Virus record (IMG/VR): IMGVR_UViG_2974528200_000001
Span: 27,511-91,510 of that record
Strand: one strand, 5' to 3'
Length of the DNA stretch: 64,000 nucleotides
DNA from: a virus
Taxonomy: Duplodnaviria; Caudoviricetes
In this document: positions 11,153 to 63,417 of the stretch, one piece after another
Layout: each line of letters opens with the position of its first letter
Numbering within the stretch: position 1 is the first letter of the stretch
Translations under genes and position numbers: made by a program
Notes under the pieces: generated by a model
Seen by the model: only the letters and a program-made list of their open reading frames with translations
Told to the model about the DNA's origin: nothing
Database searches by the model: none

Positions 11153-11500
11153 CTAGCTCCCGTTGGCTTCCTCGAATGCTTCAACGATGCCTTCGGGGAT
11201 CTTGCCACGGTCGGAGACGTCATACCCTTCGGCGCGGGCCCATTCGCGGATCTGCTTGAGTTGTTCGCGCCGGCCCAGTGAGGAGGCGGTGATGCGGGTG
11301 GACTGTTTGCGCCCGCCAACTCGGTTTGCGTGTTCAATCCACTTCTCGAGTGCTTTCTCGAACTTCATGACGTTGGATGTGCGCAGGTCGATGACGTAGT
11401 CGACGCCGCGAAAGCTGAAGGGGACCGCGTTGGCGTCCCCGTCGTCGATGGGTCGCCCGTCGAGGTCGTCGAGTACGGATACGTGTGTTACGCGTGCCAT
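11153..11500 (-). CDS. lsr2: Lsr2-like DNA-bridging protein
   Basis: DDLDG...V.F...G..Y.IDL N-terminal domain and IREWARAEGYDVSDRGKIP AT-hook domain. Confidence 0.92.
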   Translation of the reverse strand: MARVTHVSVLDDLDGRPIDDGDANAVPFSFRGVDYVIDLRTSNVMKFEKALEKWIEHANRVGGRKQSTRITASSLGRREQLKQIREWARAEGYDVSDRGKIPEGIVEAFEEANGS

Positions 11501-11515
11501 TCTATTTCTCCTTCG

Positions 11516-12016
11516 CTAGGTCTTGACTAGCACTCTCAAGTAGTCGTTCGTGTTCTCGATCGCCGTGGTGGCAACCCAGTTGCAGTTACCTTGTCCGACG
11601 ACGTGTTCGATTCTGTAGGGCCCAGTGTTCCACTCTTTGGTACCGCACTTGTCCCAGAATTCAACCCAGGCTCCCCAGGCTCGCAGTCCTGATGGATCCG
11701 CTATGGGGTTGGTGGGAAGTGACTCCAGCCGTTTGTCGAGTCGCTGGAATTTCTCGATCATCCATCGTGCTGTCATGTAGCAGTCTTGGATGCCGGCTTC
11801 GCAAACTCCCTCGTCGAGCTTGTTCTGAATCGCCTCGCATGTGGTTCCACAGTCGGCGATGTAGGTCGGCGTCTGTGTTTCTGACGTCTCGGTCGTGTCT
11901 AGCACATAGTCGGCGAGCCAATACAGGCCACCCCCGAGTGCTGCCACCAGAGCCAGTGACGCGAACACAATGACGGCCTTCGCGGGCGTTCTGACCTGTC
12001 TATCCATGCAGCGCAT
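11516..12016 (-). CDS. Membrane-anchored Cys-containing protein
   Basis: Single N-terminal TM segment, six Cys in the extracytoplasmic part. Confidence 0.65.
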   Translation of the reverse strand: MRCMDRQVRTPAKAVIVFASLALVAALGGGLYWLADYVLDTTETSETQTPTYIADCGTTCEAIQNKLDEGVCEAGIQDCYMTARWMIEKFQRLDKRLESLPTNPIADPSGLRAWGAWVEFWDKCGTKEWNTGPYRIEHVVGQGNCNWVATTAIENTNDYLRVLVKT

Positions 12017-12050
12017 GTTATCAGCATCACATATTGTTAGGCAACATAAC

Positions 12051-12096
12051 GACTGAACCCCACACTCTTCGTTGAGTGTGGGGTTCAGGTCTTTTC
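12051..12096. terminator. Strong hairpin, probably a bidirectional terminator
   Basis: CTGAACCCCACACTC-ttcgtt-GAGTGTGGGGTTCAG followed by gtCTTTTCT on +. Confidence 0.75.
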
Positions 12097-12176
12097 TGGT
12101 GGCGCGGGCGTCAAATCGAGGGCTCCAATCTGTCGTCCCCCCCGCTTTCGGGTTCGTTGTTCAGTTGTGTTTCTCG

Positions 12177-12206
12177 TCACCGGGATGGTGGGTCTCTCGC
12201 TTGCAT
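12177..12206 (-). CDS. Minigene MQARDPPSR*
   Basis: GAAAGGAGG-acag-ATG CAA GCG AGA GAC CCA CCA TCC CGG TGA on the minus strand. Confidence 0.5.
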   Translation of the reverse strand: MQARDPPSR

Positions 12207-12245
12207 CTGTCCTCCTTTCGACCTTTGTTTCGTTCGTTTCTCATA

Positions 12246-12272
12246 TCATGCTGGTGGCTCTCTGGCCTTCAT
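12246..12272 (-). CDS. Minigene MKAREPPA*
   Basis: GGAAGGGGTG-ggaa-ATG AAG GCC AGA GAG CCA CCA GCA TGA on the minus strand. Confidence 0.45.
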   Translation of the reverse strand: MKAREPPA

Positions 12273-12315
12273 TTCCCACCCCTTCCGACCTGCTTCTTTC
12301 TAACTGATGCTCTCG

Positions 12316-12344
12316 ACTATAGACAGTAGCTGTGACTACGTCAA
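12316..12344 (-). promoter_or_regulatory. SigA-type leftward promoter
   Basis: Minus strand TTGACG-N17-TATAGT. Confidence 0.75.
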
Positions 12345-12470: not shown

Positions 12471-13643
12471 ATGGCGGGTAAGCCCACCGAAGACAAGCCG
12501 TGGCCGGTAGCGGTTTACAACCGTGAAGTCGGTGGATATATCGGTCGCTTGGGGGACATCTGGGTGGAAGGACAGCTCACCCGAGTTCACCGTCCGAGTG
12601 GTTCTGTCACCTTCATTGAGATGCGCGATACGGAAAAGAATCAATCCATTTCCGTTACCGCTTCTCCTGGCGTTGTGCCGGCTGACATCGCTTCTGGTGA
12701 TCATGTGAAGGTATTGGGTCACCCGCAGTACTGGACGTCGCGAGGGACGCTATCGCTGCGAATCAGCCGCATTCTTCCCGTCGGCGAGGGCGCACTACAG
12801 GCCGAGATGGTCGAGACCGAGAAGCGGCTCGAATCCGAGGGCCTGTTCCATCCGCGACATAAGCAGCGGCTCCCCGCGGTCCCGAAGCTGATTGGCCTGA
12901 TCACCGCCGAAAACAGCGACGCCGAGAAGGATGTCCTGAATGTTGCGCGGGACCGCTGGCCGAACGTCGAGTTCAAGACCCTTCACATCCCCGTCCAGGG
13001 CGTTCGGTGCGCAGGCAGAGCTGTCGCTGCACTGAAGTCCCTTGACGCAGACCCCACGGTTGACGTCATCATCTTCGCCCGTGGTGGTGGGTCTAACCAG
13101 GACCTTCTGCCCTGGTCGGACGAGGCTCTCGCGCGCGCCGTGTTCGCCGCCAACACGCCCACAGTCAGCGCGATCGGGCACGAGAACGACAAACCGATGC
13201 TGGACCGTGTCGTGGACCTGCGAGCCGCGACGCCGACGGACGCAGCGAAACGTGTCGTACCCAACCTGTCTAATGAGCTCCGGCAGATCGAACAGGTGTT
13301 CGAACAGATTGGAGGATCGATCCGTGGACAGGTGCAGAACAACCAACTGCGTGTCGACTCCATGCTCAACCAGGTCGCAGGGTCGATCGCCGGGTCCGTC
13401 AACCGCGAGCAGATCCACCTGCAGAACGCCGTCCAGTCCCTGTTCGTGCAGTCCGAGGCCTTCATCGGTAGCCGTGAGCGGCGAGTCGACACGCTAGGGG
13501 AGACCCTCAAGGCCCTGGACCACCAGAAGGTTCTCGACCGCGGTTACGCCGTGGTTCAGGGCGTAACCGGACCGACGCCGGCATCCGGCACCCGGTTCAC
13601 CGTCACCACGAAGGACGGCACGTTCGATGCCGTCGTCGCATAA
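12471..13643 (+). CDS. xseA: Exodeoxyribonuclease VII large subunit
   Basis: OB-fold WVEGQ, IGLITA, VQG, ARGGGS..DL..WSDE, SAIGHE.D, RAATPTDAA, LDRGYAVV. Confidence 0.95.
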   Translation: MAGKPTEDKPWPVAVYNREVGGYIGRLGDIWVEGQLTRVHRPSGSVTFIEMRDTEKNQSISVTASPGVVPADIASGDHVKVLGHPQYWTSRGTLSLRISRILPVGEGALQAEMVETEKRLESEGLFHPRHKQRLPAVPKLIGLITAENSDAEKDVLNVARDRWPNVEFKTLHIPVQGVRCAGRAVAALKSLDADPTVDVIIFARGGGSNQDLLPWSDEALARAVFAANTPTVSAIGHENDKPMLDRVVDLRAATPTDAAKRVVPNLSNELRQIEQVFEQIGGSIRGQVQNNQLRVDSMLNQVAGSIAGSVNREQIHLQNAVQSLFVQSEAFIGSRERRVDTLGETLKALDHQKVLDRGYAVVQGVTGPTPASGTRFTVTTKDGTFDAVVA

Positions 13644-13655
13644 CAGAGGAGAGTC

Positions 13656-13841
13656 ATGACCTACGAAGAAGCCCAGGCCGAGCTCGAGCAGCTCACCCGC
13701 AAGATCGCCAGCGGTTCGATGACCATCACCGAACTCCTGCCAGCCTGGCAGCGCGCGCTCGAGCTCAAGGGGGTCTGCGAGGAGCATCTGCGCGTCGCCC
13801 GTGAGTCGCTGGCCGACGTCATCGAGAAGGCTAACTCGTGA
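13656..13841 (+). CDS. xseB: Exodeoxyribonuclease VII small subunit
   Basis: TYEEAQAELEQL...G.....LL..WQRA.EL...C...L; follows xseA. Confidence 0.88.
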   Translation: MTYEEAQAELEQLTRKIASGSMTITELLPAWQRALELKGVCEEHLRVARESLADVIEKANS

Positions 13842-15044: not shown

Positions 15045-15257
15045 ATGGCATACATTTTCGACAAGAGCGAGTTGGCAGCACTCGCGGAGGTGATTCCGAA
15101 GATCGACGACGCCACCGGGTCGAGCCTCGGTAACAGCCAGCTGTACATCGACATGGAGCCGATCGCAGTCAAGAGCGGAAACAACAACACCATCGGGCAC
15201 ATCCTGTGGGACGACGGGTTCGTCGGCTTCCGACCAGCGGACGGGGAGATCGAGTGA
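15045..15257 (+). CDS. Hypothetical protein
   Basis: GAAAGGAG SD before ATG 15045. Confidence 0.6.
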   Translation: MAYIFDKSELAALAEVIPKIDDATGSSLGNSQLYIDMEPIAVKSGNNNTIGHILWDDGFVGFRPADGEIE

Positions 15258-16015
15258 CCGTCTACTTCACCGCCGACTTACACATCGGCCACGAGAAGGT
15301 GGCAGAGACTCGAGTCCCGAAGCTCACCAAGACCCTCGGTCGTGTTTCGTCAACCTCCATACATGATGCTCTCATCAGGTCCAACCTGCGCAACACCCTC
15401 ACCAAGCGGGATCAGCTATGGATCCTCGGCGACATCTCTGCCGGCGGGTCTGCGGCACAACGCAACGCCCTGGCCTTCCTGAAGGACATCAGGAACGAGA
15501 CGGGGGTTGAGCTCCACCTGGTCCCCGGCAACCACGATGGATGTCACCCGCAGTTCCGCACCGCCAAGAAGTGGTGGCCCGAATACCTCGAGGTATTCGA
15601 CACCATCATGCCCTTCGCCTCACGCAAAATCGCTGGTCAGAAGGTGTGCCTTTCGCATTACCCCTTCGATGGGGACCACACCGACAAGGACCGGCACACC
15701 CAGTGGCGACTCCGTGATGAGGGCCGATGGCTGCTCCATGGCCACACACACCAAGACGCTCCACTCGACCTCGTTGAGTACGGGGTGCGAGACGGCGTGC
15801 CGTGGGGCAGGGACCGGTACATCACGGTCGAAGAGGCGCGGGATCGCGACCTCCGCACCTGGTGGACGGAGATGGAGCCCGACAAGGATGACCCCCTCGG
15901 GATTGTTCGGCCCACCATCAACGTCGGCCTGGACGCCTGGGACATGAAACCCGTCTCACTCGAAACCATCGCCAACATCATCGAATCGCTCGAGAATCCC
16001 GAGGGGGGGCTGTGA
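15254..16015 (+). CDS. Calcineurin-like metallophosphoesterase
   Basis: DLH, GD, GNHD, SHYP, HGHTH and NVGLD motifs. Confidence 0.92.
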   Translation: MTVYFTADLHIGHEKVAETRVPKLTKTLGRVSSTSIHDALIRSNLRNTLTKRDQLWILGDISAGGSAAQRNALAFLKDIRNETGVELHLVPGNHDGCHPQFRTAKKWWPEYLEVFDTIMPFASRKIAGQKVCLSHYPFDGDHTDKDRHTQWRLRDEGRWLLHGHTHQDAPLDLVEYGVRDGVPWGRDRYITVEEARDRDLRTWWTEMEPDKDDPLGIVRPTINVGLDAWDMKPVSLETIANIIESLENPEGGL

Positions 16016-16489: not shown

Positions 16490-17707
16490 ATGCCCAACAT
16501 GATCGCCGACAAGGTTCTCAACTACGCGTCGCATATCGACGACAACACCATCGAACAGGCCGGCGAGATCTCGACGCTGCCGTTCATCCACCCGCACGTC
16601 GCGCTGATGCCGGATGCTCACAGCGGCAGGGGTTCCGCGGTCGGCACCGTGATCCCGACCGTCGATGCGGTGATCCCCGCGGCGGTCGGCGTCGACATCG
16701 GCTGCGGCATGATCGGCGTGCAGACGGTGGTGCAGAAGAGGGACATCCACGACCTGAACCTGGCCGACCTTCGTGCGCGTGTCGAGGAGGCTATCCCGCT
16801 GTCTCCGGGCAACTACAACAAGAATGCCCGGTGGGCCAGCCACACCGAGGAGCGCATCGCGCGGCTCGAGGAGATGGCCGAGCAGAAGGGCGTCGACCTC
16901 AAGCACTCGCCGAAGTGGCGTGAACAGCTAGGCTCACTCGGCGGTGGCAACCACTTCATCGAACTGTGTGAGCAGATCGAGGGTGACGGCACCGGATCGC
17001 TGTGGCTGTTCCTGCACTCCGGTAGCCGCGGCGTCGGAAACAAGATCGCGCAGAAGCACATCAAGATCGCACAGAAGCTGTGCAAGCGCTGGCACATCGA
17101 GCTCGCCAACCCCGACCTGGCCTACCTGGCTTCCGGGACCGACGAGTTCGGTGCCTACATCCGCGAGCTCCGGTGGGCCCAGGCGTTCGCGCTCGAGAAC
17201 CGCGCCGAGATGATGGACCGGTTCCTCAGCGTGTTCACCGACTGGCTCGCCACTGACCGCGACGCCGCCCTCGAGTACGACGGCGTCGAGATCGAAGAGC
17301 GCCGCATCAACTGCCACCACAACTACACCGAACGTGTCGAGATCAACGGCCAGAGCGTGTGGCTCACCCGCAAGGGTGCGATCGACGCCTCGGCGGGCCG
17401 CTATGGACTCATCCCCGGTTCCATGGGCACCAAGTCCTACGTGGTCTGTGGCAAGGGCAATGAGTCCGGTCTGAAGTCGGCACCCCACGGTGCTGGCCGG
17501 CGGTTCTCGCGCACGAAGGCCAAGCAGTTGTTCACCCTCGATGACCTCGCCGACCGGATGCAGGGCATCGAGTACCGACATGGTGCCGAGTGGATCGATG
17601 AGATCCCCGACGCCTACAAGCCGATAGACCAGGTCATGGCTGACGCCGCGGACCTGGTGGACGTCGAAGCAGTTCTCACCCAGCTCATGAATGTGAAAGG
17701 TATTTGA
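16490..17707 (+). CDS. rtcB: RtcB RNA ligase
   Basis: MPDAH.G.G, VGVDIGCG, GSLGGGNHFIE, HSGSRG, HHNY, RKGA, PGSMG, HGAGR, DEIP.AYK. Confidence 0.96.
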   Translation: MPNMIADKVLNYASHIDDNTIEQAGEISTLPFIHPHVALMPDAHSGRGSAVGTVIPTVDAVIPAAVGVDIGCGMIGVQTVVQKRDIHDLNLADLRARVEEAIPLSPGNYNKNARWASHTEERIARLEEMAEQKGVDLKHSPKWREQLGSLGGGNHFIELCEQIEGDGTGSLWLFLHSGSRGVGNKIAQKHIKIAQKLCKRWHIELANPDLAYLASGTDEFGAYIRELRWAQAFALENRAEMMDRFLSVFTDWLATDRDAALEYDGVEIEERRINCHHNYTERVEINGQSVWLTRKGAIDASAGRYGLIPGSMGTKSYVVCGKGNESGLKSAPHGAGRRFSRTKAKQLFTLDDLADRMQGIEYRHGAEWIDEIPDAYKPIDQVMADAADLVDVEAVLTQLMNVKGI

Positions 17708-53500: not shown

Positions 53501-54680
53501 CGGTGCTCCACCTCGCCCAGGATGCCGTCGTGGTCTTCGAAGATGACGGTTTGGAGCAGGCTGGCGAGCATGCTGTTCTCCAGTTCCTCCATGGTTGCAC
53601 CGACAGACTTTCCGAGCGTGACGTTGTGCTCCGTCAGCATCTCGATGACCTCGCTGCGGGTGAGTGCGATGCTCTGGGTGATCTCTCGTTCGATGATGAA
53701 CATGTCATGCCTCCTTGGTTTCGACCTTGACGAACACGTCAGCCGCGCCGTTGCGGTCGGTGAGAACGAACTCGACGCCATCGAATGCGTTGCCGCGCAA
53801 CTTGTCGGCGATGGTCTCGATGATGTCGGCGCGGGTCAGCTCGTCGGTGTAGCTCTTGATGTCGACGGTGGTGTGGTAGATGGCCATGGGTCAGCCCTTC
53901 GGGTTGTTGGCGACGAACTGGCGGTTGATCTCGCGCGAGCCGACGAAGTGCTGGCCGGCGGTGTTCTTGCTGAGACTGGGGGGCTTGATGAGGTTCACGG
54001 TCATGGTGGATGCCTTCTTTCAGAGTGTTGTTTGTCTTGTGTTGCATTAGACACTAGACGACTGTGCGGTGGGAGTCAACCCCGTAGGGTCCTAGAAGTC
54101 CAAACGTGCTGCTAGATTGCAGAACTCAGGGGTGTCGCGGGTGTCCTGCTCGGTGTATCCGACCGACTGGGAGAACTCGGCCAGAGCCTCACCCAGGTCG
54201 GCGGACACGATCAGTCGCAGCCGGGTCCACGGATCGAACGGGACCAGGCTCATGTAGGTGGTCACGTCACACTCCTTTCGACCAGTAGAGGATGCCCAGT
54301 CCGGTCAGGTGAGCCTGGGTCTCCTCGTCGGGCAGCTCGGACGTCGCACAGTTGAAGTCCTTGTCCGCATCGTAGAGCACGATGGAGTCTCGCACGTCCA
54401 GGTGTGCGCGCTGGACCAGGCCGGCGTTGATGAACCCAACCATCAACTCGCGGTTCAGCTTTCGCTGCATCGGGGGCAGGGCCTTGGGGTTGATCTCTTC
54501 GAGCTTCACAGTTCCTCCTCGGGGACGGTCTCGTACACGACGTGCTCGTTCACGTCGACCAGCATGCCGGTGCCGGGGTCGCTGTAGTCGATGGACACCT
54601 CGACCTGGCCCTCGGGATTGACGCCCACAGTCACAGTGACCGGGGATGCGTAGCTCACGTCGAACTCGTGCTGTTGCATC
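50526..54680 (-). other. Run of roughly 15 tightly coupled small hypothetical genes (leftward early operons)
   Basis: ORFs such as 50896-51243, 51240-51509, 51503-51754, 52005-52190, 52187-52453, 53204-53443, 53705-53887 with overlapping stop/start codons and SD sites. Confidence 0.6.
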
Positions 54681-55386
54681 ACGATGCGATCTCCTCGCGG
54701 TAGTTGATGGTCGCCATGATCTGGCCACCGACGTACTCGGTGTAGGCCGGCGGGATGGCTTCGGCGATCTCCTTGCGGACGCTCGTCCAGTCGATGCCCA
54801 TTGCCTTCTGCCACTGCGCCACGGTGCCCTTGCCGCCACCCTCGCCATACACCGCGAAGTAGGGGCCGTCGAACCACTCGCCGTGCCGGTATCCAGCCAC
54901 ACGACCGCGGTGCTTCTTGTGCTCGGGCTGTTCGACTCCGAAGTTGCGAACCTCGAAGTAGCGATGCCGGATCACGCTCAGGCCGAACATCTCACCGCAC
55001 AGGGTGAGGTCCCGGCGCATGTCTGCACCCTGCACGTTCTCGATCACGGTCGGAATGTCGAACTCCGACAACAGTTCCCGCGTCTCCGGAATCAGGTTCA
55101 GGTAGAACCGACCCCTGTTCGTGCCCTTGGTTAGCGTCGAACTCGCCTGGCATGGTGGCGACGTGTGGATCGCAGCCAAGCCGTGACCCTGCCGGGGGAG
55201 CGCGTCCAGAAACTCCAGCGCGTCACCCTGGTGGAACTCGAACGGGTAGTTCGGCTGGTCCTCGATGTCGACACCGATCACACGGAAGCCGGCGCGGTGG
55301 TAACCCATCGCGGCACCCCCGGCGCAGCAGAACAGGTCCAGCAGCACGGGCCGCGTGTCGAGTGTCGAAGTGGAGATTAGAGACAT
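54679..55386 (-). CDS. DNA cytosine-5 methyltransferase (compact)
   Basis: LDLFCCAGG (motif I), SPPCQ (IV), IENV (VI), RHRYF (VIII), AEAIPPAYTEYVG (X). Confidence 0.9.
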   Translation of the reverse strand: MSLISTSTLDTRPVLLDLFCCAGGAAMGYHRAGFRVIGVDIEDQPNYPFEFHQGDALEFLDALPRQGHGLAAIHTSPPCQASSTLTKGTNRGRFYLNLIPETRELLSEFDIPTVIENVQGADMRRDLTLCGEMFGLSVIRHRYFEVRNFGVEQPEHKKHRGRVAGYRHGEWFDGPYFAVYGEGGGKGTVAQWQKAMGIDWTSVRKEIAEAIPPAYTEYVGGQIMATINYREEIAS

Positions 55387-55891
55387 GGGTAATCCTTAGA
55401 GGTCGTTGGGGGCGGGCTTGGGCTCCCACTCTTCGATGCGGGTTTCGTTGATCTCGCCGTCGACATACTCGGTGTCGGGGGCGATGTCGACCCATAGGCC
55501 GTCGCGCAGTGCGTTATCGATCCACTCCTCCTGGTCCTCCTTCGACCAGGTCGTGAACTCGTCGGGCACGCGGGTGATGACAGCCCGGTAGCGGGTGATG
55601 AGGCGCTCATCCTCGGTGTAGGCGACCGACAGTTGCATCACGGCTCGACCTCCTGCCAGAACTCGACAGCGTCTCGGTCGTCGCCGTCGGTGTAGCTCGG
55701 CCAGTCGATGCGTTCCCCGGCGACCAGCATTGTCTTGGGGGTGGCGCGCTCGACCTTCATCAGCACGAACTCGATGGTCTCGGCGTCCCACTCGTCCAGC
55801 TCGCCAACGGTTTTCATGATCCGGGCGAGTGCCAGTTGGGCCTGCCGGGGGTCGATCTGGTCGGCGATGCGGGAGATGTTGGTAGTCATGT

Positions 55892-56335
55892 TCAGTCCTT
55901 GTTCGGGTTGGTGATGATGTGGTTCCAGTGCTGCCCGAAGCCTTCCCCGGATAGGACCTTGAGCTCGTCGCACAGTTCGGCGCAGTCGAAGTCGACGGTC
56001 TCGCGGTACGGTTCGCCGCCGACTAGGTAGCAGATCCGCACGCTATTGGCCGCGAACCAGCCGTCGTCCCATTCGTCTGCGGTGAACTCGATCTCGATGA
56101 TCTCGGCGGCGATGTCGGCGAAGTTCTCGGTAACCTCGGCCATGACCAGGTCCCACAGCCGGCGCTCCATCGCGACGTGGTCAGCGTCGGGCAGGTTCAG
56201 TGCCCACATGGTCTCTTGCAGTTGGTTCCTCAGGGTCCAGTAGTCGCCGTCAATCCGGGCGAGGAACTTGCCCTGCTCGCGGACGGCAATGTATTGCCGA
56301 CCGCTCGGGTCCTTCAGGACGTGGAGTGTTGCCAT
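55892..56335 (-). CDS. Hypothetical protein
   Basis: GGAGG SD, 147 aa. Confidence 0.6.
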   Translation of the reverse strand: MATLHVLKDPSGRQYIAVREQGKFLARIDGDYWTLRNQLQETMWALNLPDADHVAMERRLWDLVMAEVTENFADIAAEIIEIEFTADEWDDGWFAANSVRICYLVGGEPYRETVDFDCAELCDELKVLSGEGFGQHWNHIITNPNKD

Positions 56336-56583
56336 TGCTCAGGCCTCCATGCCGTACTTGAAGCGTCGAACCTCACGCCGGCGCAGGGTCTCGTTGCGCT
56401 GTTCCTGCTTGCTTGCTCGTGCCATGTCAGTTGCCTCCTTCGGTCATCCAGCCAACGATCTCCATGTCGTCGCCGGTTTCGGGGTCGATTAGGGTGCCCG
56501 CGGTGGTCAGGTCACCCCAGGGTTGTGCGTGCTCGTTGCCAGCTGCGTCCACGTAGACCAGCCACATGCCGTCGGTGCGCATG

Positions 56584-56799
56584 TCAGTCGTCCTCCAGCT
56601 TGTAACCGCCGACGCGGTTGCCGTTCTGGTCCAGGATCGAGAGGGTTTGACGTCCGACGCCGTACTCTGCGATGTAGTCGGCGACGTCGTGCAGGATGCG
56701 CGCGATCTCCGCCTCGCGGAACCATTCGTCGTTACCACCGCCGGTCTCGTCGGTGAATGCGGCGTTGCTGGTGCGGATGTTGAGTTTGAACTCGCTCAT
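56584..56799 (-). CDS. Hypothetical protein (conserved phage NAAF...RIL...D.NGN.VG family)
   Basis: Motifs as stated. Confidence 0.65.
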   Translation of the reverse strand: MSEFKLNIRTSNAAFTDETGGGNDEWFREAEIARILHDVADYIAEYGVGRQTLSILDQNGNRVGGYKLEDD

Positions 56800-57422
56800 G
56801 ACTTGTCCTTCGGGTTGTGTGCGGCAACCCAGGTGATTGCCTGCATCTCGGATGGTTCGACGCCTACCGCCTGTGCAGCCTTGGTGTAGGCATTAGACAC
56901 ACCGGCATAGACGCCCACGCGGTTGATGTAGCGGTAGTCCACGCCAGCGATCCGCATTGCCCAGCTGTCCACGGTCACGTACTCGGTGTGACCCAGGATG
57001 TTGTGCGCGAACGCGTGAGTCTTGATGCCCGGTGTCATCTCACCGAGCGGGTCGTCGGACAGATACAAGGCCTGGTAAGCCTTGCGCCAGTTCTGGTGCG
57101 TGAGGCCGGCGGTACCCGGCACGCGCGGAGCCTGGTAGCTCGGCGCACCCGGCGTTGCGAGTGCGAGCGCGAATGCCACGTTGTCCTCCCACTTGACCTG
57201 AGGTGACAGGTGGGCGATGGCGACCGCGCATGCCTCTACCTGTCGGTTAGACAGTAGGGCACACTGTTGCGCCACGTCAAACGCCTCCTTGTACCAGAGC
57301 TGACCAGCGATGATGTCAGCGTCGGTAGCTTGGTCGAACACCGACAGGATGTTCGAGACCATGGCTCGACCACCGATTCCATTCGTCTGCTTGTACAAGG
57401 GCTTGGTGCTGCGGGGTGCCAT
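56796..57422 (-). CDS. HhH DNA-glycosylase-like phage protein
   Basis: G..WY, A.LSPQ..W..N, G.KT.AF..NI, VTVD.WA, ..MQA.TWV. Confidence 0.6.
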   Translation of the reverse strand: MAPRSTKPLYKQTNGIGGRAMVSNILSVFDQATDADIIAGQLWYKEAFDVAQQCALLSNRQVEACAVAIAHLSPQVKWEDNVAFALALATPGAPSYQAPRVPGTAGLTHQNWRKAYQALYLSDDPLGEMTPGIKTHAFAHNILGHTEYVTVDSWAMRIAGVDYRYINRVGVYAGVSNAYTKAAQAVGVEPSEMQAITWVAAHNPKDKS

Positions 57423-57505
57423 GGAGCTTACCTTTCATTGTTCTGTCTGCTCTCTCGTTGTTGATTAGACACTAGCATGTCTGATCGGTGGGTGTCAACA
57501 CCCGG

Positions 57506-57958
57506 TTAGGCGTGATTCTTCCACTCGACCGCGTCGGGGAAGTTGTCCTCCAGCGTGGTGAAGTCGTCGCGCTGCCGGTAGGCGTCGGCATCAACCAGCA
57601 CCCACCGCTCGCTCGCGCCGTTTTGGAACACGACGCCCACCATGCCGTCGGGCACCCGGTCATCCCAGCTGCCCCATGCCGCGCCAACCAGGTGCTTGCC
57701 CTCGTCCAGCAGCGCGTTACGTCGATCCTCGCGCGCCTGGGACTGTTCGGCACCCTCACGGCACCGATCGTCGTGGACGCCGTTCAAGCCACCGCGCAGC
57801 TTGTAGCATGCCGCGCAGTACGCCGGCGGCGGGCAGTAGTGCAACTGCCCACCATTGCGTAGCGTCACCTTGTACTTGCACTTGCGACGTCGCACGCCGC
57901 CCGACTGTCCGCAGTTGTCGCAGCACAACTTGCCGCTGTAATCGAAGCTGTAACCCAT
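57506..57958 (-). CDS. Hypothetical Cys-rich protein
   Basis: CCDNCG...C...YC....YC..C; GGAG SD. Confidence 0.6.
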   Translation of the reverse strand: MGYSFDYSGKLCCDNCGQSGGVRRRKCKYKVTLRNGGQLHYCPPPAYCAACYKLRGGLNGVHDDRCREGAEQSQAREDRRNALLDEGKHLVGAAWGSWDDRVPDGMVGVVFQNGASERWVLVDADAYRQRDDFTTLEDNFPDAVEWKNHA

Positions 57959-58369
57959 TGTCAGATCTCCTTGTTGAGCTGAGCGATGCCGACCACGGCC
58001 ACCAGGGTGACGACCGTGAACAGTGAGGTGATGATGATGAACTGAAGCGCGTGCAACCAGGGATTCATGTCACCAGTCCTCATCCCAGCTGCACTGGCAG
58101 CGATCCTTGACGTACTCGCAGTACTCGCAGACGTTGTCCATGGGACATCCTTTCGATTGAGCTAACCCATGTGTGGTGTGCCCACCTGTTGATTAGACAG
58201 ATGGGCACACGGACACAGTGGTCAGTCCACGTTGCCCGACTTGGTCCAGGCGTTGGGCGTGTACTCGGCCTGGCCGCTGCGCGACTCGGCACGCAGGGTG
58301 TCGACGTCGACCTGGACCTGCTTGAGCAACAGCGTGTCGTCCATGTTCATGGTGTCTCTCCTTTCCTGT

Positions 58370-59641
58370 TTAGGCCGCGACGCGCGCGGCGATGGACTCA
58401 CGGGTGGGAACGGTATTGCGGGCGATCAGGTGCCACGCCTTGCCGTTGCCCATCTTTCGACGGGCATGGTCAGGCTCGCGCCACATGTCCCCGGCGATCC
58501 AGGGGTGGTGGTACATGCTGCCGCGTGCCAGCATGGTGCCGTCGGGCAGCGTGGCGACCTCGGTTGCCGTGTGGGCAGTGCCATACAAGGGCGTGCCGGT
58601 TGCTTGCTCGATCTCGCGGCGATGCTTGGGCTTGGTGATGCGAGTCGTGGGCATGATCTGCCATAGCCAGTGCCGACCGTAGTTCTTCCCCTGCTGACTC
58701 AGCCAGTGGGACCAGTCGCCGGTGAAGTCCACGGCCTCAACAGCCGGCACGAAGTCGGTGTCATCGAGCATCTTGAAGTTGTAGTCGTTCTCGACCCAGT
58801 CACGGACCGGGCCCTTGCGCTTGGTGATGACGCCGCCCATGCGCTTGATCTGCGCCGTCGTGATCTCGGTCGGGATCGCGAACATGTCACCCTGCCGGGT
58901 CACTTCACGGCCCATATCCTCGGCAGTGAGGACAGCCTCAGGCTTGAGTGCCTGCATCGCATCCTCGAACGAGAACACCTCACGCGGCAGCTCGGACAGG
59001 AAGTACAGCGGGCGCGACTCCTGCCGATCGAACGATGACACGTAGTACGCCGTGCGCTCGAACTCACCCCACGGCTGAGTTTTGGCCTTGAACACGGCGT
59101 CACCCAGCCAGTGCCGCACCGAATGCCAGCGGTAGGTGCCGTCGGCATCCAGCTTGACCAGCTGGCCACCGTGAGTGCTGCCGACGAAGTGCCGCGTGTC
59201 CTCGTTGGTCCACACGTACTCACTGCCGTAGTACCCGCCGCGGACGTTGTCCACGATCATGCCGCCCGGTGCGACCGACGACGACTGCGCCGTGTACTCG
59301 AAACCGTCCGCCTTGACGTCGATCGGTTCGATCGTCGTCGCCTTGATGTTTGCGTTGCTCAGTGCCTCGAAAGGCACGATCACGTAGGTGATCTCGGCAC
59401 GGGCCAGTGCGTGTCGCACCTCGGACTGATGCCGGGTGGTCGACACCGAGTAGGTGTCACCGTTGAGCACGGCGTGCCGGATCGTGCCGTCGTCGTTGCG
59501 GACCAGGATGCCCATCGGGAAGTGACGACCGTAGGAGTAGATGGTGTCACCCTCGGAGAACACGTTGCAGCCGGTCAGGGTGGTGCGCAGACCCTTGGGG
59601 TTGCTGATCCACCGTGCGACCATCTTTTCGGTGTTGGACAT
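58370..59641 (-). CDS. Hypothetical protein, 423 aa
   Basis: GAAAGG SD; IYSYG.HFP, YS.ST..HQ and RQGDMF motifs seen in phage early proteins. Confidence 0.75.
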   Translation of the reverse strand: MSNTEKMVARWISNPKGLRTTLTGCNVFSEGDTIYSYGRHFPMGILVRNDDGTIRHAVLNGDTYSVSTTRHQSEVRHALARAEITYVIVPFEALSNANIKATTIEPIDVKADGFEYTAQSSSVAPGGMIVDNVRGGYYGSEYVWTNEDTRHFVGSTHGGQLVKLDADGTYRWHSVRHWLGDAVFKAKTQPWGEFERTAYYVSSFDRQESRPLYFLSELPREVFSFEDAMQALKPEAVLTAEDMGREVTRQGDMFAIPTEITTAQIKRMGGVITKRKGPVRDWVENDYNFKMLDDTDFVPAVEAVDFTGDWSHWLSQQGKNYGRHWLWQIMPTTRITKPKHRREIEQATGTPLYGTAHTATEVATLPDGTMLARGSMYHHPWIAGDMWREPDHARRKMGNGKAWHLIARNTVPTRESIAARVAA

Positions 59642-59725
59642 GGGGTTGCCTTTCAGTGTGTTGAGCTAACCGTTGAGTGATCCGTCCAAGTGTTGGTTAG
59701 ACACTTGGGCGGACGGACTCACAAG

Positions 59726-61380
59726 TCAGTTCCGGTATGCCGAGCTGTCGTTGTAGTAGCGGCCATCCCAGATGCAGGGCAGGCCATCAGTGTTGCCATC
59801 CTCGTACTCGCAGGCCGGGAGGACCTTGACCATCGACGGTGGCACGTTGTCCAGGTCGATCGGTGCAGGTGCCTGGTGTGCGATGAACAGGGACAGGATG
59901 AACGTGGTCACGATCACGCGTCCACCTCGTCACGCTCGTACTCGTTGGCGGGCACGATGTTTCCATCGCTGATCCGGGCGTCCAGCCAATCGTTGTACTG
60001 AATCTGGTAGTCGATGGTCGAGACCTCCTTGAGTACCAGCGACGCGTTGTAGTGGATACCCAAGATCTCCACCGCCGGCTGGATCTCGTCGACGAACTCG
60101 TCGAACATCTCGTGCAGGTCGTAACTGTCCAGCTCACGCCCGGTTGTCGGCTCGATGTACTCGCTCATTTTGTCTCTCGTCTCTTGTTGTTGATTAGACA
60201 CTAGCAGGTTCAAGTGGTGGGTGTCAACACCCCGTCACTCAGGTTCGACTACCGCGTAGTACGAGGAGCCATCCAGATTGAGTATCCGGTACTCCATGCC
60301 GTAGGGGACCTCGATGACCAGGAGCTGGGCACCGGTCACCTTGTCCATCGACCGTTGGCGAATGTTGAGTTGCTCCTCAGCGGAGAACGTCTCATTCAAG
60401 ACCTCATCCGCTTGCACCTCCAGCCGCTGGAGGCGTTCTGCCGGCGTCACAGTCCGACACCCACGTGAGTGTAGAGTCCCTGAGCGTCAGTCGACCAGCG
60501 ATCGACGTCGCCACCGTTGACGTGGCCGACGGTGGTGCTCTCACCTGCAACCCACAGGCCGATGATGACACCCTCACACATGTACACGGTCACCGTGAGT
60601 CGGGCCGTCATGTCGTCGCTGGTCTCATCGACCAGGACCAGACCACGGGCGCCGTCGCCGGCCCACAGCTGGCCGGCGTCGACCAAGGTCGAGAACACGT
60701 TGCCGGTTGCGTTGAAGTTCTCCAGGATCATGCCCTCACGGTGGAGGCTGAAGCCGCGTGCGGAGTATCGCATTGTGTTGCCTTTCGTTCTTTGTTGTGA
60801 CTCAGCCTATCAGACTGACTCGTGGGTGTCAACTGTCAGAACTGGTAGAACCAGTCATCCAGCTCAGGGTCAAGCATTGACCCAAAGATCACCTTTGGGT
60901 GTTCGGCACTGTCGAACGACCATTCGTCGTGGCGGTCAATCCCGTTGGCTGCAGCGTGCTGGTCGAGCGCCTGCTCGGCTGTCATGTCACGCGCCGCCGG
61001 CGAAAGCTCGCCCATGGCGATCATGGCCTCCACCAGGTCACGGGGCTGGTAGTTGTCGCCGGCCCAGGTGTAGCCGACGATGTCCGTTGCGTGCATCTCA
61101 TTACCCTTTCGGTTGATGCTTTCAGCCTATCAGACTGACTCGTGGGTGTCAACTGTCAGTTGTTGGCACAGTCGATCGCGTAGGCGTCACCGAGGCAGAC
61201 CTGGTCACACACCGCGCAATCGAAATAACCATCCGCGTCGACCTCAGTGAGGACCAGGGGACCACCGAGGGAGCCGGCCAGAATCTCGATGCCGGCGGTG
61301 ACAGACACGGCCTCATCGAGGTCCAGGTGGCTGTCGTCGTCATTGTTGATGACGATTGCGCAGGAGTGGCAGGAGAGCAT
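59726..61380 (-). other. Small early genes (59726-59917, 59914-60168, 60235-60450, 60447-60773, 60836-61096, 61156-61380), in cassettes bounded by promoter repeats
   Basis: ORFs with SD sites, each group preceded by a TTGAC-N17-TAG promoter. Confidence 0.6.
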
Positions 61381-61543
61381 TGGTCTGACCTTTCGCTTGT
61401 TTTCTCGGCTTGTTTCTTTGTTGCTCTCAGTCTATCAGACTGAGCGGTGGAAGTCAATCCCCGTTGGATTCGAGTTTGCTAGCGTTGCAGTGACTCTGTA
61501 ATCCAGGGACCGACTGCCGGCTATGCCAGCGTGTCGCCACTAG

Positions 61544-61591
61544 TGCCCCGCGTGAGGACTTGAACCTCACTGCCCGCCTATTCGGTGGGGC
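61544..61591 (-). ncRNA. tRNA-like mini-element 1 (acceptor plus T-arm, no anticodon arm)
   Basis: GCCCCAC-cgaataggcgggca-GTGAGG TTCAAGT CCTCAC-GCGGGGC-A. Confidence 0.55.
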
Positions 61592-61640
61592 CCTTCCTTG
61601 CTTGTGTTCTCAGTCTAGCCGATTGAGTGGTGGGTGTCAA

Positions 61641-61820
61641 CTACCAGCGGTGGGTGACCTCAAACCGGTCCCGACGATTGAACAGACCAGAATCACCGTT
61701 GTGAAACTTAATCCACACATAGGCCGGGTTACTGCCGGCACCGATCGAGTCGACAACCAGCGAGCCGCTGATCTCGTAACCCTCACGCAAATTCTGAGCC
61801 TCATAGGTCGCCGGCAACAT
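61641..61820 (-). CDS. Hypothetical protein (59 aa)
   Basis: GAAAGGA SD; MLPATYEAQNL...; lies between two promoter repeats. Confidence 0.55.
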   Translation of the reverse strand: MLPATYEAQNLREGYEISGSLVVDSIGAGSNPAYVWIKFHNGDSGLFNRRDRFEVTHRW

Positions 61821-62122
61821 GTCATATCCTTTCGTTGTTCCTGCTTGCTTGTGTTCTCAGTCTAGCCGATTGGGTGGTGGGTGTCAAGTCCTACCAGCGA
61901 AACGTCGGTAGGATATTGACGTCGTCATGCTCGCGCCACAGCTCGTCGAAAGCGCCAACACCCTGCCCGCTAGGAGACCAGCGATTAGCCTGCCTGATAG
62001 CGTCCCGGTCATCAGTTGCAGTGATGCCAACGGTTGTCCCATCGCTTGCCATGTAAGTATATTCCACTGGTCTGCCTTTCGTTCCATAGGTAGCCGGCAG
62101 TACGGGCGTACTACTAGCGTCG

Positions 62123-62177
62123 TGCCTAGTGTGGACTCGAACCACAGACACCCTAGAGTGCCCCACCATGGCTAGGC
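62123..62177 (-). ncRNA. tRNA-like mini-element 2 (acceptor, short stem, T-arm)
   Basis: GCCTAG-ccatggtgg-GGCAC-tctagg-GTGTC-TGTGG TTCGAGT CCACA-CTAGGC-A. Confidence 0.6.
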
Positions 62178-62188
62178 TGATGCCTAGA

Positions 62189-62758
62189 TCAGGCGTCGAT
62201 TAGTGCCGCCTGGACCAGTTCGCGAAACGCCTTAGGAACGTTCCACTTAATCCAGCTCTCGCGACGATCGGCGTCCATGCGTGCCAACTTGTCCACGAAT
62301 ACCTGGACTTGACGCGCACGGTTGGCCGCGGCACGGTCCTGGTCCACCACGGCACGGGAAGACTTGACCTTGGGTGCGCCGATCACCTTGGGTGCGGCCA
62401 CCTTGGGTGCGCGCGACTTACGGCCGGTTGAGCGTGCCTCCCAATCGACGTATGTGCCGTATGAGGTGTATGCCACCGACGCCGTGCCGCCCAGAGACGC
62501 GGCCACCGCAACGTCTCCGACCAAGTCGGTATCGACCACATTTTCAGTGCGACCATCATAGGCGTAAACGTTGCGCCCGTTTTCCGCCACGTCGGCCAGG
62601 TCCGCGCGAAAGGCTTCAGACTGAGCGGGGGTCAAGTTCGCCCATGGTTGCGCGCCCTCACGGTAAGACTGACGACGGTTGGAGACTTTCTCAGGGTTTG
62701 ACGCCTTAGGCTTGCCCGGAATGTTTCCGCCGTACCATTCACCCTCACGATGCACCAT
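62189..62758 (-). CDS. Hypothetical basic protein
   Basis: GAAAGG SD; APKV repeats. Confidence 0.65.
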   Translation of the reverse strand: MVHREGEWYGGNIPGKPKASNPEKVSNRRQSYREGAQPWANLTPAQSEAFRADLADVAENGRNVYAYDGRTENVVDTDLVGDVAVAASLGGTASVAYTSYGTYVDWEARSTGRKSRAPKVAAPKVIGAPKVKSSRAVVDQDRAAANRARQVQVFVDKLARMDADRRESWIKWNVPKAFRELVQAALIDA

Positions 62759-62885
62759 TGTTCTGCCTTTCATGCGTTGGATAAAGTCCAGCCACGGATA
62801 GGCCGGCCTAGCGCACACACTCCGATTGAACGGTAGGGCCCTATGTCCCGGTATGTGCTTAGTCTAGCGGATTGGGTGGTGGGTG

Positions 62886-63092
62886 TCAAGCTACCTTGAC
62901 CAGGGATACCCGCTTGACCAGCGAGACCACGGGCCGACGGTGCCGACCATTGTCGGAGTAGGCAACGTCCCCGAACGGGACGCCATTCTGGTCTGCGCTG
63001 TCCCAACCTAGGTAGATCTCGGCCAGGTTGGCGGTGAATGCCCACTTGTCGACCAAGTGGACGTAGTGGCGGGGACGGTAGGTGCTGGTCAT
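62886..63092 (-). CDS. Hypothetical protein
   Basis: GAAAGG SD, downstream of a promoter repeat. Confidence 0.6.
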   Translation of the reverse strand: MTSTYRPRHYVHLVDKWAFTANLAEIYLGWDSADQNGVPFGDVAYSDNGRHRRPVVSLVKRVSLVKVA

Positions 63093-63417
63093 TTTTCTTG
63101 CCTTTCGATCGGTGGTGGTCTGTTGTCAATCACAATACACACTTGAGTGGTGGGTGTCAACCGTTGTTCGCGGGTTTGATTCTGTCCAGTGACCCTGTCG
63201 GACCGGTTGAGCTGGCCGCCGTTGCGGCCGTGGTCCCCTCACACGTGTTGTGTGGGTGTCCGGCTTGCCAGTACAGGTCGGTGCCGGATGTTCAATTTGT
63301 GATGGTCCCCATCATGCCCGGTTGAGTGGTGGGTGTCAAGCTAATGGTGTGTGACCTGCATCACACTACCCCTCGCGCGCGCGTATAGGGAAGGCGTCGA
63401 CCAGGGGGGGGGCGGAT

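Follow-up and report, generated by a model that had tools for sequence, protein, structure and literature searches.

The present analysis of a leftward gene cassette in a temperate Gordonia phage identifies a short array of SD-led proline-proline minigenes set between a promoter and a strong hairpin, upstream of the gene for an Lsr2-like nucleoid-associated protein. From comparison of homologous sequences we conclude that what is selected is ribosome loading and arrival at an R-x-P-P motif, with an added constraint at the level of codons; arrest itself, on so short a chain, would follow by analogy with known arrest peptides. The reading that we favor, at a probability of roughly 45%, is that the array is a stand-alone phage RNA that would trap ribosomes and tRNA-Pro(UGG).

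The window, i.e. the whole stretch of 64,000 nucleotides analyzed, comes from a 91.5-kb virus record of a temperate, cluster-CQ2-like phage, and its closest relative found here by blastn is Gordonia phage OneUp (84.5% over the region), which has been placed in cluster CQ2 (PMC5559632). An integrase-like and a repressor-like ORF (Table 1) indicate the temperate lifestyle. The array lies in a leftward cassette with the last tail gene on one side and, on the other, the rightward xseA-xseB operon; the divergent operon of the window carries both subunits of exonuclease VII, a metallophosphoesterase and RtcB (12471-13841, 15206-16015 and 16490-17707). A Pfam search with the membrane protein of the cassette returned no match, and its gene is missing from the DL-type loci (Daredevil, the Bantam group and Mollymur). 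The phage genome encodes no tRNA-Pro genes, and an Rfam scan found no family reaching gathering score, a tRNA scan also being negative. Elsewhere in the window (54079-63160, minus strand) there are 11 near-consensus leftward promoters, most of them with TTGACA/T and then CCCAC.

Table 1. Positions of features in the window (in peptides, a stop codon directly follows the last residue given)
Feature	Position	Strand	Remarks
Lsr2-like nucleoid-associated protein gene	11153..11500	minus	Pfam Lsr2 and Lsr2_DNA-bd
Single-TM membrane protein, 163 aa, 6 Cys	11516..12007	minus	phrog_13269; hydrophobic stretch from residue 11
Second promoter (predicted), TTGCCT-N18-TAACAT	12015..12044	minus	predicted start = ATG 12007 of membrane gene (leaderless mRNA)
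Strong hairpin, 15 perfect pairs (12088-12053)	12051..12091	minus	about -31 kcal/mol; weak U tract
Terminal Arg-less xPP ORF, (M)TPAPPEKT	12085..12149	minus	equivalent Arg-less ORFs in relatives
Module 2, SD AAAGGAGG (12218-12211) and minigene MQARDPPSR (ORF 12206-12177)	12177..12218	minus	OneUp counterpart
Module 1, SD and minigene MKAREPPA (ORF 12272-12246)	12246..12286	minus	SD tract 12286-12275; CCA CCA = codons 6-7
Putative phage operator, inverted TGTCTA...TAGA(A/C)A half-sites over -10 and start site	12297..12325		half-site recurs in phage promoter regions, including repressor region
SigA-type array promoter (predicted), TTGACG-N17-TATAGT	12316..12344	minus	predicted start about 12309
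Integrase-like ORF	19806-21173		identified by eye from sequence
Repressor-like ORF	21668-22114		identified by eye from sequence

The promoter, both RxPP minigenes and the hairpin were all found where the original prediction had placed them. Its three repeated modules reduce to two, as the third ORF is weaker, has no Arg and represents a different kind of module. This terminal ORF has two start candidates, TTG at 12114 with GGAG 8 nt upstream, which is the most plausible, and ATT at 12129 behind a G tract, and its stop codon TGA (12087-12085) sits within the 5′ arm of the hairpin. Only two SD-led ORFs in the 91.5-kb genome combine a start with RxPP, and these are modules 1 and 2. When the intergenic region was shuffled 20,000 times with dinucleotides preserved, at least two such ORFs appeared in 5 cases; the region was picked after the fact, so it is the homologues that carry weight. 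As for the unstructured spacers of the prediction, the array is U-poor (9% U), but its folding energy is no weaker than that of shuffles (z -0.5), and the unstructured look is a consequence of composition. Standard annotation does miss the minigenes, as had been anticipated, with the modules unannotated in every GenBank record examined.

A shared unit consisting of promoter, one to four SD-led MxxRxPP minigenes, hairpin and lsr2 occurs in CQ1, CQ2, Daredevil, the Bantam group and Mollymur, usually though not universally with a terminal Arg-less xPP ORF, and minigene copy number ranges from 1 to 5 among phages. OneUp has MRAREPPA, MRAREPPSW and the same terminal ORF as the window, its second module showing synonymous Ala and Arg changes relative to that of the window. 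In seven CQ1 phages there is a single module, MKAREPPSRL.., whose Ala, Arg and Ser codons have changed synonymously; module 1 of the window is orthologous to MRAREPPA of OneUp and to MKAREPPS.. of CQ1. The single CQ1 module lies 65-66 nt from the hairpin and there is no terminal ORF in CQ1. Between module 1 and the hairpin, CQ1 phages (L002-L005) have a second AAAGGAG lacking a properly spaced start and an open frame, G-R-A-P-L, running through the hairpin 5′ arm, which are probably a relic of module 2. Miskis, also of CQ1, is a natural mutant in which CCA has changed to TCA in the only module, giving PS instead of PP (L005:2154-2174). Daredevil, Bantam, SpeedDemon, DatBoi and Mollymur are divergent in DNA, out of reach of blastn from the window (E 1), and their Lsr2 is only 35-37% identical to CQ Lsr2; they nevertheless have three or four RxPP modules, an Arg-less terminal ORF, hairpin and lsr2, and in whole-genome pattern searches of five of the homologous phages 12 of the 14 matches listed fall in the array locus. 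In OneUp and the DL-type phages, as in the window, only 0-8 nt separate the Arg-less terminal ORF (QEEPP, EEPPG and KHPPST in these relatives, each followed by a stop) from the hairpin, a distance within one ribosome footprint. Mollymur has lost the module stops, so that its modules join into one ORF of 94 aa, for which the sole tblastn match was itself. The array is always upstream of lsr2, with Yvonnetastic and JonJames lacking both at the locus, and no array was found near lsr2 in the other phages that carry the gene (Trax, Syleon, Porcelain, Omega, JoeDirt, BigCheese, Whirlwind and Nebkiss).

Patterns within the modules point to selection at the level of the peptide. Among 23 distinct modules, which arose by duplication and are not independent, so that counts of modules are not p-values, the SD-led start shares its frame with PP in 21 of 22 cases. 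The distance from start to PP changes by whole codons only (3-6), while the spacers between modules can have any length; module spacing is about 56-89 nt, or about two ribosome footprints. All 18 distinct Arg modules keep the Arg, through five codons (AGA, CGA, AGG, CGG and CGC), have A, T, P or S at position -3 and are restricted at x to G (six), D (five), E (five) and S (two, encoded by AGC and TCG). Both prolines are CCA in 18 of 18, a codon that accounts for 12% of phage Pro codons and 3 of 49 PP pairs. The N-terminal consensus is M-(N/K/Q/R)-(A/T/P)-R-x-P-P, and sequence after PP is unconstrained, the stop coming 0 to about 90 codons later. Mutagenesis of ApdA and ApdP showed that G, S, D and E (plus A, P and V) permit arrest at x, REPP and RDPP giving partial arrest only (PMC12992588), and the x residues of the modules fall entirely inside this permissive set. 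A minimal RxPP has been reported to be enough for arrest, and in ApdP the three residues preceding Arg contact the tunnel (PMC10951233); RAPP alone has been reported not to suffice in natural arrest peptides, where an N-terminal region is also required (PMC12992588). In E. coli, CCA strengthens pausing at Pro pairs via limiting UGG tRNA (PMC8129111). The predicted stalling on Pro-Pro or RxPP at the peptide level is thus strongly supported by the homologues and by the match of x to RAPP mutagenesis. Some modules but not others contain a macrolide-type +x+ motif (KAR, RAR, RTR), which was rejected as a general feature, and pairing of SD with CCACC was seen only in folds of the window and OneUp. 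Phage terminase small-subunit-like genes (L199:559, by Pfam; L232:4647, minus strand, which is similar; and L220:1358) begin M(P)GRRGPP with the prolines encoded by CCA CCA, possibly a built-in translational brake, and since these genes are evidently translated, an N-terminal RxPP would not be an absolute block and context matters.

Several explanations other than stalling could account for the conservation of the modules. The nucleotide word CCACCA might itself be the signal, as a protein-binding site or a mimic of the tRNA 3′ end on a small RNA, with ribosome loading secondary; this would fit its invariance amid variable neighboring codons, the G or T that follows it in 23 of 23 modules and the presence of tRNA-repair-like genes in the phage (RtcB, metallophosphoesterase), but is improbable given that SD, start, frame, Arg and the x set are kept at the amino-acid level, that translation can explain the invariance of CCA, and that Rfam offers no family at gathering score. 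In the 11 leaders checked, each CCACCA is preceded at 3-6 codons by a start in its frame, and in the comparison that the prediction had proposed between conservation of the peptide and of CCACCA, no copy has lost frame or start. The conserved N-terminal consensus could also reflect short peptides that are released and act in trans, as proline-rich ribosome ligands or signals, but the C-terminal length and sequence are free (7 to 94 aa) and a free peptide does not need fixed CCA codons, which makes this very unlikely. We give equally little credence to the array as a non-functional remnant of a decayed repeat protein, even though 11 of 15 non-redundant module spacings are multiples of 3, Mollymur forms a single long ORF and one natural P-to-S mutant exists; each module has a separate SD and start, changes in the CQ1 core are synonymous only, and conservation extends across phages with Lsr2 as divergent as noted above.

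A more serious rival, possible but less probable in our view than ribosome trapping, is a leader acting in cis, through which lsr2 expression would depend on translation. The base of the hairpin would be covered by a ribosome that pauses or terminates at the terminal xPP ORF, a motif sensitive to EF-P and tRNA-Pro, and RNA polymerase could then read through; the RxPP modules upstream would either keep Rho and RNases off the leader or titrate the factor that is sensed. RxPP arrest has been reported to be refractory to EF-P, so modules 1 and 2 would not sense EF-P and only the Arg-less terminal ORF could. The hairpin is probably a terminator or the 3′ end of an RNA of about 260 nt, and hairpins of -27 to -46 kcal/mol occur at the same place in all homologues folded. 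Consistent with a leader, the terminal ORF is distinct (no Arg, GTG or TTG start, 3-4 codons to PP) and in CQ2 and the DL-type phages its end lies in or beside the 5′ arm of the hairpin, lsr2 always comes after the array, and MgtL provides a precedent for an acidic-Pro leader. The leader is viable in Daredevil and Mollymur, where no -10 element (TANNNT) was found between hairpin and lsr2. In CQ phages, however, a predicted second promoter that the first reading of the sequence did not describe lies directly behind the hairpin in 6 of 6 leaders scanned, with its predicted start at the start codon of the membrane gene; it is the same in OneUp, and in four CQ1 phages its counterpart, identically placed, is TTGTG(G/A)-N17-TAGTAT, so that membrane protein and Lsr2 would need no read-through there. 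Bantam and DatBoi also have a -10-like site, TAGGGT, after the hairpin, albeit with no -35. No antiterminator was found, forbidding the hairpin costing 20-42 kcal/mol in all nine leaders folded, and without a competing fold the hairpin could be opened solely by a ribosome that occludes it. Modules 60-250 nt upstream are too far away to reach it, and module 1 is conserved in CQ1 in the absence of a terminal ORF. Of the two uses originally proposed, attenuator or sponge, the sponge is favored here, and the attenuator is weakened for the window phage by the predicted second promoter and the lack of an antiterminator. Both could operate together, the last ORF then serving as a read-out, and cis control accounts better than a sink for the conserved Arg-less terminal ORF at the hairpin and for the invariable association with lsr2.

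The array promoter by itself is not significant (1 found vs 2.9 expected), and its support is conserved position, as the sole TTGNNN-N16-19-TANNNT at the equivalent place in 11 of 11 leaders. The half-sites of the putative operator at this promoter are 17 nt apart; the commonest spacer genome-wide is 9, with TGTCTA-N9-TAGACA occurring 19 times in the window phage genome at no more than 2 mismatches, including beside the repressor gene, whereas a 16-nt spacer gives 13 occurrences and most other spacers 0-9. These palindromes, found in intergenic promoter regions (window 15007, 22142, 42226, 47730, 54033 and others) and often with an additional upstream half-site 7 nt away, are likely a multi-site operator system. 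The genomes of Daredevil, Bantam and Mollymur each have 14-21 copies of an asymmetric 13-bp site, TGTTGCRTGTCTC, with 0 in controls, and this site overlaps the -35 of both the array promoter and the divergent promoter. The same site, operator- or stoperator-like, also occurs at position 76-92 of the left genome end in these three phages. Overlap of the promoter with genome-wide operator-like sites suggests lytic expression, and we infer that the array promoter is phage-regulated and probably lytic.

The minimal conserved unit is promoter, SD-MxxRxPP and hairpin, and this, together with the range of copy number and a spacing of two footprints, favors ribosome trapping by a stand-alone RNA. Such an RNA, about 165-365 nt long, would carry stalled ribosomes as its payload, its spacing letting every module hold a ribosome of its own and its hairpin both ending and protecting it. 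With CCA as the codon of both prolines, tRNA-Pro(UGG) and probably EF-P would be tied up whenever a ribosome stalls or the 6-residue peptidyl-tRNA drops off, and the RNA could then serve in lytic growth as a dose-tunable translation sink that slows CCA- or polyproline-rich messages, presumably to the benefit of the phage. Besides the reported need for an N-terminal region, the partial arrest on REPP and RDPP and the translated terminase genes, points against a sink are that, with the share of CCA among phage prolines, the phage's own genes would be slowed in lytic growth, that PP pairs in its long ORFs are about as many as by chance, and that Miskis carries CCA to TCA in its only module. A broader scheme, which we consider rather doubtful as a whole, is that ribosome-trap RNAs drain tRNA-Pro(UGG) and EF-P and throttle CCA- or polyproline-rich messages such as host defense genes and those of lower-GC competing phages, while the last Arg-less ORF reads the depletion to control the DNA silencer Lsr2.

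Exact-pattern scans of IMG/VR, GTDB, a JGI metagenome, plasmids and 401 genomes from the order of an Amycolatopsis genome, which can miss divergent arrays, found no SD-led arrays beyond these Gordonia phages, and matches elsewhere were ordinary tandem repeats or chance, apart from one candidate. This is a fragment of an unrelated jumbo phage (L019:2671-2803; IMGVR_UViG_3300009149_000016), in which MNARGPP, followed by a stop, has a strong SD and MQRARSPP.. lies 100 nt upstream; the pair, which has a dNMP kinase on one side and a PocR-domain gene on the other, matches the Gordonia consensus and may have arisen by convergence. A literature search, with most subscription journals outside its coverage, found no paper on phage RxPP minigenes. 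If stalling is true, the minigenes would be the shortest natural RAPP-type arrest peptides and offer a direct test of the need for an N-terminal "regulator module" and of the fate of a 6-residue stalled chain, whether stable arrest or drop-off. Bacterial proteomes purge arrest motifs, and phages would here employ them either to act on host translation or to provide Lsr2 with a sensor. The array is easy to test, as cultured phages of a laboratory host, G. terrae 3612, carry it and the Miskis P-to-S mutant is a ready control.

In RAPP-type arrest a Pro occupies each of the P and A sites, and the arrest is reported to be refractory to EF-P. The array shares with the RAPP/RGPP-type arrest peptides (ApdA, ApdP, ApcA, CruR and Streptomyces lividans uORFs; PMC12992588, PMC10951233) the R-x-P-P core with invariant Arg and small or acidic x, a position upstream of other genes and actinobacterial ribosomes. 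In contrast to them, its modules have only 3-4 residues before Arg, and a signal sequence, TM segment or metal-binding domain that could release arrest is missing; SD and start are present separately for every motif, copies are in tandem with fixed CCA codons, the array is phage-encoded, and a strong hairpin and, in CQ, a separate predicted promoter intervene between array and gene. With toxic minigenes of the lambda bar type and tandem rare codons near the start (PMC2490762) it has in common an SD with ORFs of 7-9 codons, a tandem rare codon at 6-7 and an expected build-up of peptidyl-tRNA of one isoacceptor, which in the bar type is relieved by Pth or the cognate tRNA, but the critical codons are not tied to the stop, there is an arrest motif at the peptide level, and the dedicated transcription unit is under selection; minigene length is 8-9 codons in the window and OneUp and 12-94 in other phages, compared with about 2-8 for the bar type. 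Proline-sensing leader peptides such as Salmonella MgtL, and leader ORFs that overlap terminators, resemble the terminal xPP ORF, as a short acidic or Pro ORF against a termination signal, but the array has no antiterminator and several extra upstream modules, and CQ1 lacks the terminal ORF altogether. With type III toxin-antitoxin loci (promoter, repeat array, terminator and toxin) only the overall layout is in common, since the repeats here are divergent and conserved as peptides rather than near-identical structured RNAs, the downstream genes are Lsr2 and phrog_13269 rather than ToxN, CptN or TenpN, and the array has no Rfam antitoxin match. The array, as read from its sequence, would work like a RAPP-type arrest peptide and like a bar-type minigene, but fails defining features of both as they have been described.
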